Below, in pieces: positions 34,682 to 40,800 of a stretch of DNA of 64,000 nucleotides. This stretch comes from Escherichia coli (GTDB lineage: Bacteria; Pseudomonadota; Gammaproteobacteria; Enterobacterales; Enterobacteriaceae): NCBI RefSeq assembly GCF_013122565.1, contig NZ_CP053258.1, one strand, 5' to 3'. Below the pieces are notes generated by a model. That model saw only the letters and a program-made list of their open reading frames with translations, had not been told where the DNA came from and did not search any database. Each line of letters begins with the position of its first letter. The first letter of the stretch is position 1. The translations under genes were made by a program, and so were the position numbers.

Positions 34682-35692
34682 ATGAAGGCTGCAGTTGTTA
34701 CGAAGGATCATCATGTTGACGTTACGGATAAAACACTGCGCTCACTGAAACATGGCGAAGCCCTGCTGAAAATGGAGTGTTGTGGTGTATGTCATACCGA
34801 TCTTCATGTTAAGAATGGCGATTTTGGTGACAAAACCGGCGTAATTCTGGGCCATGAAGGGATTGGTGTGGTGGCAGAAGTGGGTCCAGGTGTCACCTCA
34901 TTAAAACCAGGCGATCGTGCCAGCGTGGCGTGGTTTTACGAAGGATGCGGTCATTGCGAATACTGTAACAGTGGTAACGAAACGCTCTGCCGTTCAGTTA
35001 AAAATGCCGGATACAGCGTTGATGGCGGGATGGCGGAAGAGTGCATAGTGGTCGCCGATTACGCGGTAAAAGTGCCAGATGGCCTGGACTCGGCGGCGGC
35101 CAGCAGCATTACCTGTGCGGGGGTCACCACCTACAAAGCCGTTAAGCTGTCAAAAATTCGTCCAGGGCAGTGGATTGCTATCTACGGTCTTGGCGGTCTG
35201 GGTAACCTCGCCCTGCAATACGCGAAGAATGTCTTTAACGCCAAAGTGATCGCCATTGATGTCAATGATGAGCAGTTAAAACTGGCAACCGAAATGGGCG
35301 CTGATTTAGCGATTAACTCACGCACTGAAGACGCCGCCAAAATTGTGCAGGAGAAAACCGGTGGCGCTCACGCTGCGGTGGTAACAGCAGTAGCTAAAGC
35401 TGCGTTTAACTCGGCAGTTGATGCTGTCCGTGCAGGTGGGCGTGTTGTGGCAGTCGGTCTGCCGCCGGAGTCTATGAGCCTGGATATCCCACGCCTTGTG
35501 CTGGATGGCATTGAAGTGGTCGGTTCTCTGGTCGGCACGCGCCAGGATCTAACCGAAGCCTTCCAGTTTGCCGCCGAAGGCAAAGTGGTGCCGAAAGTCG
35601 CCCTGCGTCCGTTAGCGGACATCAACACCATCTTTACCGAGATGGAAGAAGGCAAAATCCGTGGCCGTATGGTGATTGATTTCCGCCGCTAA
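34682..35692 (+). CDS. adhP: Zn-dependent alcohol dehydrogenase AdhP, 336 aa
   Basis: aaggagg RBS; ATG at 34682; Zn-ligand motifs GHEGIGVV and CGHCEYC. Confidence 0.96.
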
Positions 35693-35837
35693 GAGGCCTT
35701 TGCTGCGACTGCCATGTTCGGGTCGCAGCATCGCACACTCTCCAACATGAAATGGCTAAATGGATTATTGTTGCGTAGGAAGGAACAATAATGATAGTGT
35801 TCCCAGAGAAGGAACGCTACTGAGAGTAAAGACACTA

Positions 35838-36122
35838 ATGAAAATGGCCAATCATCCCCGCCCGGGGGACATTATTCAGGAATCACTGGACGAACTTAAT
35901 GTCAGCCTGCGCGAGTTTGCCAGAGCAATGGAAATTGCTCCCTCAACGGCAAGCCGATTGCTGACAGGAAAAGCAGCTTTGACGCCAGAAATGGCAATTA
36001 AACTTTCCGTGGTGATCGGCAGTTCGCCGCAAATGTGGCTGAATCTGCAAAACGCCTGGAGTCTGGCAGAGGCTGAAAAAACGGTGGATGTGTCGCGATT
36101 ACGCCGTCTGGTTACGCAATAA
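35838..36122 (+). CDS. yddM: HigA-like XRE-family HTH protein (putative antitoxin), about 94 aa
   Basis: HTH region [34 protein letters not shown]; start could be 35838 or an upstream in-frame ATG (track ORF begins 35760). Confidence 0.75.
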
Positions 36123-36175
36123 AAAAATGGAACTTTATAAAGCGCCATTTAGAACTGATGACAAACGCAACATTG

Positions 36176-36275
36176 CCTGATGCGCTACGCTTATCAGGCC
36201 TACATGTTCACTGCAATCTATTGTATTTGAAGGGTTTGTAGGCCGGATAAGGCGTTCACGCCGCATCCGGCATGA
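36176..36275. repeat. REP (repetitive extragenic palindromic) elements
   Basis: gcctgatgcgctacgcttatcaggcctac and gccggataaggcgttcacgccgcatccggca, canonical E. coli REP units. Confidence 0.85.
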
Positions 36276-36350
36276 ACAAAGCCTACGTTGTCTACAATAT
36301 GAAAATGACGCCTTTTACAGCGCCATTTTCAGCTTAAAGTTCAAAAGAGA

Positions 36351-37004
36351 TTATATCCCTTCTTCACTCTCTTTTTTCGCTTCTGCCTTCTCGATTTCAC
36401 GATACCAGCGCGGATGGTGTTTCTTCGCCCAGCGACGGCTCACCTTCCCTTCGATCATCCCTTTAATCGATCCTTTCACCCAGAATGCCATATACATATG
36501 GATCAGGATGGCGTGGATCAGGATGATACCCGCAGCCGCGTGGATCAGCAGGCTGTAGCGAACAACTTGCATCGGGAAGTACTGCGCAAAGTACGGACGC
36601 CAGATAATTACCCCGGTCACCAGCAGCACAAAAATCATACTCATGATTGACCAGAACATCATCTTTTGCCCGGCGTTGTACTTACCAACATCCGCCACTT
36701 TATGCTCATTGCCTTTCAATACTTCGACAATGTTCAACAGCCACGGAATATCTTTCTTATCCGGGATGTTGTGATGCACAAAACGCACAAACATAAACAT
36801 CAGCGCGACGAAAATCGCAATGCCGAAGAACGGGTGCAAAATGCGTCCCATCTGCGGCGTACCGAAGGTTTGCGTCAGCCATTGCAGCGTCGGGAAGAAG
36901 AACGAAATCCCGGACAGCGCCACCAGGAAGAAGCAAATCACCACGGTCCAGTGACAGGCGCGATCAATAAATTTGGTGCGCACAATCATTTTCGACTTAC
37001 TCAT
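36351..37004 (-). CDS. fdnI: Formate dehydrogenase-N gamma subunit (cytochrome b556), 217 aa
   Basis: Start at internal Met ([19 protein letters not shown]...); four transmembrane helices with His ligands; start overlaps the fdnH 3' end by 8 nt. Confidence 0.93.
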
Positions 37005-37893: not shown

Positions 37894-40800
37894 TTACGCC
37901 TTCTCGATGTTGACTAAGAACGCTTTATATTCCGGCGTTTGCGAGTTTGCATCACCGACATTCGGCGTCAGAGTGTTAGCGATATAACCTTTACGCGCGA
38001 CACCCTCAAAGCCCCAGTGGATCGGAATACCCACCGTTTCAACCTGCTGACCATTTACATTCAGCGGTTTCAGACGGCGCGTTACCACCGCCACCGCGCG
38101 GATAAAGCCACGCTTGCTTGAGACAGTGACACGATCGCCATTATTAATGCCTTTCGCCGCCGCCAGCGTTTCGCTGATTTCCACAAACTGTTCCGGCTGA
38201 GCAATTGCGTTGAGCAACGCGTGCTTGGTCCAGGTGTGGAAGTGCTCGGTCAGACGATAGGTCGTACCCACATACGGGAACTGCTCTTTTTTACCCATCC
38301 GCAGCGCGTCTTGTTCATACAGACGAACGACCGGGTTAGACACCACGTTCGGATGCAGCGGGTTAGTGCCCAGCGGCGTTTCAATCGGCTCGTAGTGTTC
38401 CGGGAACGGACCTTCCGCCATTTTGTTGATGGCAAACAGGCGTCCCATCCCTTCCGGCTGCATGATAAACGGCCCGGTTGGCGTACCCGGTGCGGCATTG
38501 CCGAAGTCCGGAATATCGTTACCCGTCCACTTGCTGCCGTTCCACTGGATCAGCATCCGTTTCGGATCCCACGGTTTACCGTTGATATCCGCCGAAGCAC
38601 GGTTGTAGAGTACGCGACGGTTGAGCGGCCACGCCCAGGCCCATCCCAGCGTATTCCCCAGACCGGACGGGTCGGAGTTATCGCGGTTAGCCATCTGGTT
38701 GCCCTGCTCTGTCCAGCTACCGGTGTAGATCCAGCAAGAAGATGCGGTTGTACCGTCATCACGCAGATGCGCAAAGCTACTCAGCAACTGACCTTTCTTC
38801 GCAATCAGCACGCCATTTGCGTCATAGAGATCTTCCAGCGCATAGCCGTTGTTCTCTTTTGCCACTTCGTCAGATTGCGGTTCGTGCGGCTGCTTGTAGT
38901 TCCAGCTCATCTTCATCAGCGGTTCTACGCCTTTACCACCTTCGGCCTGGTACAGCTCGCGCAGATGATGGTAGATACCCGCCAGAATTTCGCCGTCGTT
39001 ACGCGCTTCGCCCGGCGCGTCCTGACCTTTCCAGTGCCACTGCAACCAGCGACCGGAGTTAGCGATAGAACCATCTTCTTCGGCAAAGCAGGTCGAAGGC
39101 AGACGGAATACTTCAGTCTGAATAGACGCCGGATCGACATCGTTCGACTCGCCGTGGTTCTGCCAGAAGGTAGAGGTTTCAGTCACCAGCGGATCGATAA
39201 CCACCATGTACTTCAGCTTGCTCAGGCAGCTCACCACTTTGTTTTTGTCCGGGAAGGACGCAACCGGGTTAAAGCCCTGGCAGAAATAACCGGTGACTTT
39301 GCCTTCGTCCATCATGTTGAAATACTTGATGACGTCGTAGGTCTGGTCCCACTTCGGCAGCCAGTCATAGCCCCAGTTGTTCTCTTTCTGCGCGGCATCG
39401 CCATAGAAAGATTTCATCAGGCTAACGAAGAACTTCGGATAGTTGCTCCAGTAGTTCACCTGATCAGCCAGCGTCGCTTTCGGCGTGTTCGCTTCCAGAT
39501 ACGACTGCAAATCAACCTGTTTTTCTGACGGCAGCGTCAGATAACCTGGCAGGCTGGTAGAGAGCAGGCCTAAGTCAGTCAGGCCCTGAATGTTGGAGTG
39601 ACCACGCAATGCGTTCACGCCGCCACCGGCCATACCCATGTTACCGAGCAGCAACTGGATCATCGCCATAGTACGGATGTTCTGCGCACCCACGGTGTGC
39701 TGCGTCCAGCCCAGCGCGTACAGGAAGGTGGTTGTGCGATCCGGTGCGCTGGTGGAGGCCAGCACTTCACACACTTTCAGGAAGTCGGCTTTTGGCGTAC
39801 CGCAGATGTTTTCAACGACGTCCGGCGTGTAGCGGGAAACGTGCGCTTTCAGCAGGTTCCACACACAGCGCGGATGAGTCAGTGTTTCATCGCGTTTCGC
39901 ATAGCCGTTTTCATCGAACTGATAGTTCCAGGACGATTTATCGTATTGCCGTTTTTCAGCGTCGTAGCCGCTGAACAGACCGTCTTCGAAAGCAAAATCA
40001 TCACGCACCAGCAGGCTGGCGTTGGTGTAATGCTTAACATATTCGGCGTTGATTTTGTTGTTTTCGATCAGGTAGCGCAAAACGCCAGACAGGAACGTAA
40101 TGTCCGTACCGGAACGAATAGGTGCGTAAATATCCGCCACAGAAGCGGTACGCGTAAAACGGGGATCGACAACGATCAGGGTTGCATCGTTGTTGTTTTT
40201 CGCTTCCATCGCCCAGCGGAAACCGACGGGATGCGCTTCCGCAGCGTTACCGCCCATTACCATTACGACGTTAGCGTTTTTGATATCCACCCAGTGGTTG
40301 GTCATCGCACCGCGACCAAATGTTGGAGCAAGACTTGCTACCGTTGGTCCGTGTCAGACGCGCGCCTGGTTGTCTACCGCCAGCATCCCGAGGGAGCGGG
40401 CAAATTTCTGGGTCAGCATCCCGGTTTCGTTGCTGGCACCGGAGGCACACAGCATACCGGTAGAAAGCCAACGGTTTACCGTTACGCCCTGCTCGTTCTT
40501 TTCAATAAAGTTAGCGTCACGGTCAGCTTTCATCAGCTTCGCAATACGGGTGAATGCTTCTTCCCAGCTAATGCGCTGCCATTTGTCAGAACCTGGCGCA
40601 CGATATTCCGGGTAGCGCAGACGGTTTTCGCTGTTGACGTAATCCAGCAAACCGGCCCCTTTCGGACACAGCGCACCACGGCTTACCGGATGATCCGGGT
40701 CACCTTCAATGTGATAAATCGCTTCTCTGGCGTTTTTCGCGCCATCACCCAGGCTATACATCAATAGCCCGCAACCTACGGAACAGTATGTGCAGGTGTT

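Follow-up and report, generated by a model that had tools for sequence, protein, structure and literature searches.

The yddM gene of Escherichia coli encodes an antitoxin of the HigA type, and in the stretch of DNA analysed here, 64,000 nucleotides of one strand (the window), no toxin gene stands in front of it. This raises the questions of whether the antitoxin ever had a partner at this locus, how the partner was lost, and what the antitoxin does alone. The gene order around it, maeA–adhP–yddM–fdnIHG, is of the E. coli type, with fdnI lying downstream of yddM on the other strand. The stop codon of adhP ends at 35692, and a gap of 145 nt (35693–35837) separates adhP from yddM. An earlier note made from the letters of the sequence had described yddM as a HigA-like antitoxin gene without an intact upstream toxin, and had suggested that the tiny open reading frames (ORFs) in the gap may be the remnant of a decayed one. 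The features of the locus are collected in Table 1.

Table 1. Coordinates of yddM and of the elements in front of it, numbered from the first letter of the window.
Feature	Position	Strand	Description
Hairpin	35701–35730	+	9-bp stem TGCTGCGAC/GTCGCAGCA, 12-nt loop, just past the adhP stop codon
Operator O1 (predicted)	35770–35786		GTTGC-GTAGGAA-GGAAC, 17 bp; upstream repeat of the former higBA promoter
-35 hexamer (putative)	35771–35776		TTGCGT, inside O1
Extended -10 element (putative)	35792–35800		TG-A-TAGTGT, overlaps the left half-site of O2
Operator O2 (predicted)	35799–35815		GTTCC-CAGAGAA-GGAAC, perfect 5-bp inverted repeat with a 7-bp spacer
Leader and deletion scar	35816–35837	+	22 nt between O2 and the ATG, from pairwise and profile alignments
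yddM	35838–36122	+	94 aa, orphan HigA-family antitoxin, XRE-type HTH DNA-binding protein

The assignment of YddM to the HigA family is firm. YddM scores 93.7 bits against the TIGR02607 'antidote_HigA' profile, whose cutoff is 47.7, over residues 3–81, and 39.1 bits against Pfam HTH_3 (cutoff, 23). It is 100% identical over 94/94 residues to the 'antitoxin HigA' of PDB entries 2ICP/2ICT, and 2ICP is HigA of E. coli CFT073, as cited in PMC6987408. YddM thus lies above the cutoff of a curated family profile and, through the identical solved structure, has the HigA fold, a compact HTH dimer. A further mark of the family, a HigB (PF05015) gene directly upstream, is absent from the window and present in orthologous loci. 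The RefSeq name of the gene in thousands of E. coli genomes is 'yddM: HigA family addiction module antitoxin', and the record WP_000781370.1, identical to the YddM of the window, is annotated in both higB+ and toxin-less genomes. The reading of yddM as a HigA-type antitoxin gene without an upstream toxin therefore holds, on the strength of TIGR02607, HTH_3, the identity with 2ICP and a gap that contains no toxin gene. Because YddM is identical to the protein encoded beside HigB in toxin-bearing strains, it would be expected to bind and neutralise HigB.

The toxin partner is found at the same position in other genomes. A 279-nt gene annotated as 'type II toxin-antitoxin system RelE/ParE family toxin' lies exactly between adhP and yddM there, encodes 92 residues and shares one base with the ATG of yddM (strains Yu5, Z0117EC0036 and NRG857c). 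Its product scores 64 bits against the PF05015 HigB-like_toxin profile and is 56.5% identical to the endoribonuclease HigB of plasmid Rts1 (E = 8e-32), with His54 and the C-terminal EDYH motif conserved between the two. The comparison with genomes carrying an intact pair, which the earlier note had proposed, bears out the existence of such a pair: of the 5426 complete E. coli genomes, 1329 have a HigB gene between adhP and yddM, 3023 a toxin-less gap of the window type and about 1061 a second toxin-less type (strain H10), these being sample frequencies and not population frequencies, as clinical lineages are oversampled in RefSeq. The three classes together cover nearly all of the 5426 genomes. 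Among named strains, ST131, S88 and NRG857c are toxin-bearing and K-12, O157:H7 and O111:H8 are toxin-less; the gap of the window is 100% identical to that of O157:H7 strains. The locus as a whole has no fully identical counterpart among complete RefSeq E. coli genomes, the best reaching 98.7–99.0%. From the phylogroups of these named strains, the loss of higB presumably occurred after the B2 lineage had branched off.

The pair is also old. In a scan of one genome per species for relatives of YddM with HigB directly upstream, an overlapping HigB–YddM pair was found in E. albertii and other Escherichia lineages, in about 12 Citrobacter species, and in Pluralibacter and Enterobacter, and in these genera it mostly adjoins fdnI. 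The pair is present in Buttiauxella, Cedecea, Chimaeribacter and Erwinia as well, with no match to fdnI within the stretch fetched. As judged from these gene neighbourhoods, the common ancestor of Escherichia and Citrobacter already carried higB–higA at the adhP–fdnI position. Because the pair is old at this position, the toxin-less alleles of E. coli are the derived ones.

Little of the toxin gene has stayed behind in the window. A tblastn search of the gap with the HigB proteins of E. coli and Rts1 at word size 2, of the kind suggested in the earlier note, revealed no toxin similarity in any frame, the best hit being a match of 3 residues with E = 0.97, and no HigB-like ORF was found across the whole 64-kb window (best E = 0.19). 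A DNA profile of 415 positions was built from 21 intact modules; it takes in 75 nt ahead of higB, the higB gene and the first 60 nt of yddM, and was aligned to the window by nhmmer. Profile positions 11–65, the operator region, match 35763–35817 with E = 3e-11, and positions 350–415, from the last higB codon onward, match 35833–35898 with E = 7e-21. The 284 positions in between (66–349), which take in the last leader nucleotides and almost the entire higB ORF, have no match in the window, and 15 nt stand in their place (35818–35832). This filler shows short, unconvincing matches to the higB leader and codons 5–6 (TGA-GAG ... AGACAC) and to the last higB codons (TACTG ... GAC ... CACTGATG). The only trace of higB in the window is the CAC-TAA at 35833–35837, whose last A lies within the ATG and which corresponds in the alignment to the final His codon and stop codon of higB. 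The H10-type toxin-less allele retains CACTGATG, the same as higB+ alleles. The deletion junction is common to all toxin-less variants, which points to a single deletion event. Alignment thus indicates that in the lineage of the window, K-12 and O157:H7 one old deletion took essentially all of the 279-nt higB ORF and fused the promoter and operators to yddM. An intact yddM and the O1/O2 control region are left of the complete HigBA module. Because higB is absent from both the gap and the 64-kb window, the locus holds the antitoxin half only and is not a toxin–antitoxin system.

Two other accounts of how the antitoxin came to stand alone have to be weighed against this deletion. That the gap is a decayed toxin pseudogene, with the small ORFs as its remains, is highly improbable. 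Decay of the toxin is known at this locus elsewhere, in that an identical 1-nt frameshift in higB is shared by 545 E. coli genomes, ST131 included, and truncated or frameshifted copies occur in Citrobacter sp. FP75, C. portucalensis and Xenorhabdus species; the higB-like CAC-TAA before the ATG of the window points the same way. However, residual similarity over a substantial part of the length of HigB, as expected of a toxin pseudogene, is absent: no frame of the gap resembles HigB, and the profile finds 15 nt where the higB ORF should be. As for the ORFs, the gap does contain tiny ones only, as the earlier note had stated, the longest on the + strand having 25 codons (35714–35791). The small ORF singled out in that note starts at an internal Met codon of this ORF and was placed one base off, at 35746–35790; it actually spans 35747–35791, stop included. 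It starts ahead of O1 and runs across it, and the DNA that it occupies is homologous to the non-coding stretch preceding higB in intact loci; an Rfam scan of 35500–36500 found nothing within the gap. The pseudogene account is refuted for all but the last 5 nt of the gap. It is hardly conceivable, in turn, that yddM has always been a lone XRE regulator at this locus, with no toxin at any time, and owes its HigA label to mere family resemblance. Many XRE-HTH proteins are indeed not antitoxins, and in publications on K-12 YddM figures as a transcription factor yet to be characterised. However, the identical WP_000781370.1 is encoded downstream of, and overlapping, a PF05015 gene at the same adhP–fdnI position, and a HigB partner is present in roughly one E. 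coli genome in four and in every outgroup genus that was examined. The orthologous loci refute this account.

The start codon of yddM had been regarded as ambiguous between 35838 and in-frame codons from 35760 upwards, and this ambiguity can be settled in favour of the ATG at 35838. In all intact loci, the stop codon of the toxin overlaps this ATG (TGATG or TAATG). The TIGR02607 profile begins at residue 3 of the 94-residue form, the crystallised HigA has 94 residues, and RefSeq also places the start at 35838. Initiation at the alternative in-frame ATG, 35760, would yield a protein of 120 aa, and the additional 26 codons would be supplied by the operators O1 and O2 themselves. The overlap with the toxin stop, the start of the profile, the length of the crystallised protein and the presence of the operators inside any extension together identify 35838 as the start. 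The Shine–Dalgarno sequence before this ATG is poor, and in intact loci the translation of yddM is probably coupled to that of higB, so that the expression of yddM in the window may be low. The hairpin just past the adhP stop codon is near-identical in higB+ and toxin-less alleles and forms the left edge of the region that differs between them. Because this hairpin has no T-run and gave no intrinsic-terminator score, adhP transcripts might read through it into yddM.

The control region of the former module is retained in front of yddM. O2 starts 29 bp after O1. Both follow the pattern GTTSC-N7-GSAAC, which recurs near positions -58 and -29 relative to the higB ATG in 24/24 higB+ loci from Escherichia to Erwinia. 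The half-sites GTTCC and GGAAC of O2 are invariant in these 24 loci. Across loci, there is little or no variation in the operator half-sites and free variation in the 7-nt spacers, which is the pattern expected of protein-binding sites. Elsewhere in the 64 kb, the motif occurs as a single weaker variant at 7253. A consensus scan of 35600–36400 found no strong sigma-70 promoter and likewise no terminators. Because no strong sigma-70 consensus is present, the -35 and -10 elements of Table 1 are weak assignments that draw on conservation and on the analogy with Rts1, where HigA alone represses and two operators cover the -35 and -10 elements (PMC12266136). In K-12, binding of the RpoD holoenzyme (RNA polymerase–sigma70) has been observed between adhP and yddM (PMC3946193), and YddM belongs to the ten candidates whose DNA binding was confirmed by ChIP-exo, and its motif is palindromic (PMC6237786).

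In the window, the control region (35731–35815) has diverged from its counterpart in the higB+ E. coli allele much further than the flanking genes have. Between toxin-less and higB+ E. coli, 9 of 14 operator-spacer positions differ with the half-sites unchanged, and the stretch from the adhP hairpin to O1 is barely alignable; yddM itself shows merely 2–9 synonymous differences from the higB+ allele. Natural variants of this promoter also exist. In the H10-type genomes (about 1061), the 11-nt core of O1 (35773–35783 in the window) is inverted: in place of GCGTAGGAAGG stands the exact reverse complement, CCTTCCTACGC, flanked by perfect 9-nt inverted repeats, ATTATTGTT and AACAATAAT. The flipped O1 still reads GTTSC-N7-GSAAC with its halves swapped, and the TTG of the putative -35 hexamer is gone. 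Because the haplotype differs at further positions too, the flip resembles a hairpin template-switch mutation that has become fixed in a single haplotype, not a reversible switch. A second variant, seen directly in three genomes (AST215, WP4-S17-ESBL-08 and MRSN346647) and, from its abundance rank, present in at most about 200, is a 29-nt deletion between 8-nt direct repeats, GAAGGAAC (window 35779–35815). It removes the left half of O2 together with the putative -10 element and leaves one hybrid operator and an intact yddM.

Loss of the toxin with retention of the antitoxin has also taken other routes. The common 1-nt deletion that frameshifts higB is carried by AVS0970 and 544 other complete genomes, that is, 545 of the 1329 toxin-bearing ones, O25b:H4-ST131 included; about 41% of the 'toxin-bearing' genomes in the collection are thus without a functional toxin and have an intact higA. 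Independent cases occur in other genera. In Citrobacter sp. FP75, an internal deletion between ATGGCGA repeats has removed part of higB, and C. portucalensis and Xenorhabdus lircayensis carry higB frameshifts. In X. khoisanae and Chimaeribacter californicus, just the 3' end of higB is left and the operators are lost.

In toxin-bearing strains, the selection that acts on the antitoxin is obvious. After the loss of the toxin, yddM also appears to be under purifying selection, as indicated by an excess of synonymous changes. Among toxin-less alleles, pN is 0 and pS is up to 0.07 in yddM. Six toxin-less alleles segregate at 7 synonymous sites and 1 non-synonymous site (binomial P = 3e-4 against neutrality), and the sites private to toxin-less alleles, a weaker test, give 4 synonymous to 1 non-synonymous (P = 0.013). 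Recombination from toxin-bearing strains may have introduced some of this synonymous polymorphism.

Taken together, yddM is very probably the remnant of a higB–higA module of the toxin-first, Rts1/PF05015 kind, which lost its toxin by deletion and persists as the gene of a small autoregulated DNA-binding regulator. In the mechanism proposed, yddM would still be transcribed from the old higBA promoter, with the -35 element inside O1 and the extended -10 element overlapping O2, and YddM dimers are predicted to bind the O1 and O2 sites and so repress their own synthesis. The locus would be unable to arrest growth or to act as an addiction module without the toxin, YddM would go on as a small autoregulated DNA-binding regulator, and it would neutralise its cognate HigB if higB were reintroduced. 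A further step, which is possible though doubtful, is that the antitoxin has been domesticated: selection would keep YddM and the half-site pairs of both operators as a small autoregulated transcription factor, possibly with a role in immunity against the re-acquisition of higB from toxin-bearing E. coli, and promoter variants would reset its expression. If so, the flip of O1 in about 20% of genomes and the 29-nt O2 deletion in a minority would be such resets, and the operator spacers, having diverged unusually fast once the toxin was lost, would be part of the retuning.

The persistence of yddM could also be explained in other ways. It would be quite improbable for yddM to be a functionless relic that has simply not yet decayed. 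Such a relic would be consistent with the loss of O2 and the putative -10 element in some strains, which suggests that expression of yddM is dispensable at least in those with the 29-nt deletion, with the weak Shine–Dalgarno sequence, and with the want of a clear phenotype, the epetraborole hypersusceptibility of the Keio yddM deletion not having been complemented. However, the synonymous excess in yddM is strong, annotation shows an intact gene in every toxin-less genome inspected, and these span deep phylogroups, and the operator half-sites are untouched despite their diverged spacers. The protein is moreover expressed and DNA-binding in K-12, as shown by ChIP-exo (PMC6237786). Immunity is another candidate function, in which the orphan would be kept mainly as an anti-addiction factor against HigB arriving on plasmids or by recombination from toxin-bearing E. 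coli, and not as a regulator of other genes. This role is often discussed for orphan antitoxins (PMC7354431). YddM, being identical to the partner of HigB in toxin-bearing strains, should neutralise that toxin, and HigB homologues are encoded on 539 plasmids, 99 of them from Escherichia. However, leaving out three chromosomal records filed as plasmids, the plasmid HigB proteins are all below 60% (at most 59%) identical to the chromosomal toxin of E. coli, and YddM is just 41% identical to Rts1 HigA over the 81 aligned residues. Toxin–antitoxin pairs are usually insulated from one another. At such low identities, cross-neutralisation is hypothetical, and immunity as the main reason for the retention of yddM is unlikely.

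The toxin-less state at the K-12 locus is already known and ordinary, and the HigA identity of YddM is already given in RefSeq. Bustamante and Vidal (2020; PMC7232551) listed the locus of the adherent-invasive E. coli (AIEC) strain NRG857c as TA20, parE-2/higA-2, and reported that HS and K-12 encode the antitoxin alone there; the coordinates of TA20 in NRG857c were confirmed to be those of the adhP–toxin–yddM–fdnI locus. CFT073 HigA and NRG857c TA20 resemble the window in the protein (94/94 residues), the position between adhP and fdnI and the operator pair. However, these B2 strains have the 92-aa toxin of the HigB/ParE family upstream with a one-base overlap, whereas in the window the toxin is deleted and 22 nt lie between O2 and the ATG. 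HigB–HigA of plasmid Rts1 from Proteus vulgaris belongs to the same two families (PF05015 and TIGR02607) and has the toxin first, as in the chromosomal pair of E. coli. Two operators lie over its promoter, which HigA alone represses, an arrangement also predicted for the window. It differs in being a plasmid addiction module that has its toxin, and its proteins share 41% (HigA) and 56.5% (HigB) identity with their chromosomal counterparts in E. coli. K-12 has a second XRE protein of the HigA type, YbaQ (PDB 2EBY), a relative of YddM (E = 5.6e-9). The toxin for YbaQ, parE-1 of the PF05015 type, is present just in some pathogenic strains (PMC7232551), and YbaQ, like YddM, is DNA-binding in ChIP-exo (PMC6237786). 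Unlike YddM, YbaQ is encoded at a different locus and has 113 aa, and it is a distant relative. Orphan antitoxins in general, such as those of a Klebsiella catalogue and the anti-addiction case of chromosomal CcdA, are likewise antitoxins kept from a formerly complete module (PMC7354431), but the yddM locus differs in that the complete module of the ancestor, the point of deletion and the operators left behind can each be shown directly.

To this the present analysis makes an incremental addition: it locates the deletion junction, describes the conserved operator pair, and provides allele frequencies and evidence for purifying selection. For annotation, the locus should be called an orphan antitoxin, neither a toxin–antitoxin system nor a toxin pseudogene, with the start of yddM kept at 35838. 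It is an example of a common pattern, in which chromosomal toxins are lost repeatedly by deletion or frameshift and the DNA-binding antitoxin and its operators persist. The predicted pair of GTTSC-N7-GSAAC sites also provides a concrete candidate binding site for a poorly characterised regulator of K-12.

Several features near yddM were observed in passing. Palindromic repeats of the REP/BIME type lie at 36140–36280, between yddM and fdnI, with about 40 matches per E. coli genome, and Rfam gave sub-threshold matches to the REP-derived naRNA4 and ES036 downstream of yddM. The spacer between yddM and fdnI differs greatly from strain to strain: it measures about 50 nt in H10, 228 nt in the window and about 406 nt in K-12, and some strains carry an IS200-family insertion there. 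A 90-codon ORF antisense to yddM (35876–36148, - strand) is annotated in none of the genomes inspected and is probably spurious. The ORF of fdnG (37894–40305, - strand) is listed with 803 aa only; the listing presumably ends at the in-frame TGA that is the selenocysteine codon of formate dehydrogenase-N. Finally, the 214-nt contig NZ_JAMQHS010000132.1 of 'Clostridium sp. CMCC3677' matches the beginning of E. coli yddM with 100% identity and is almost certainly assembly contamination.
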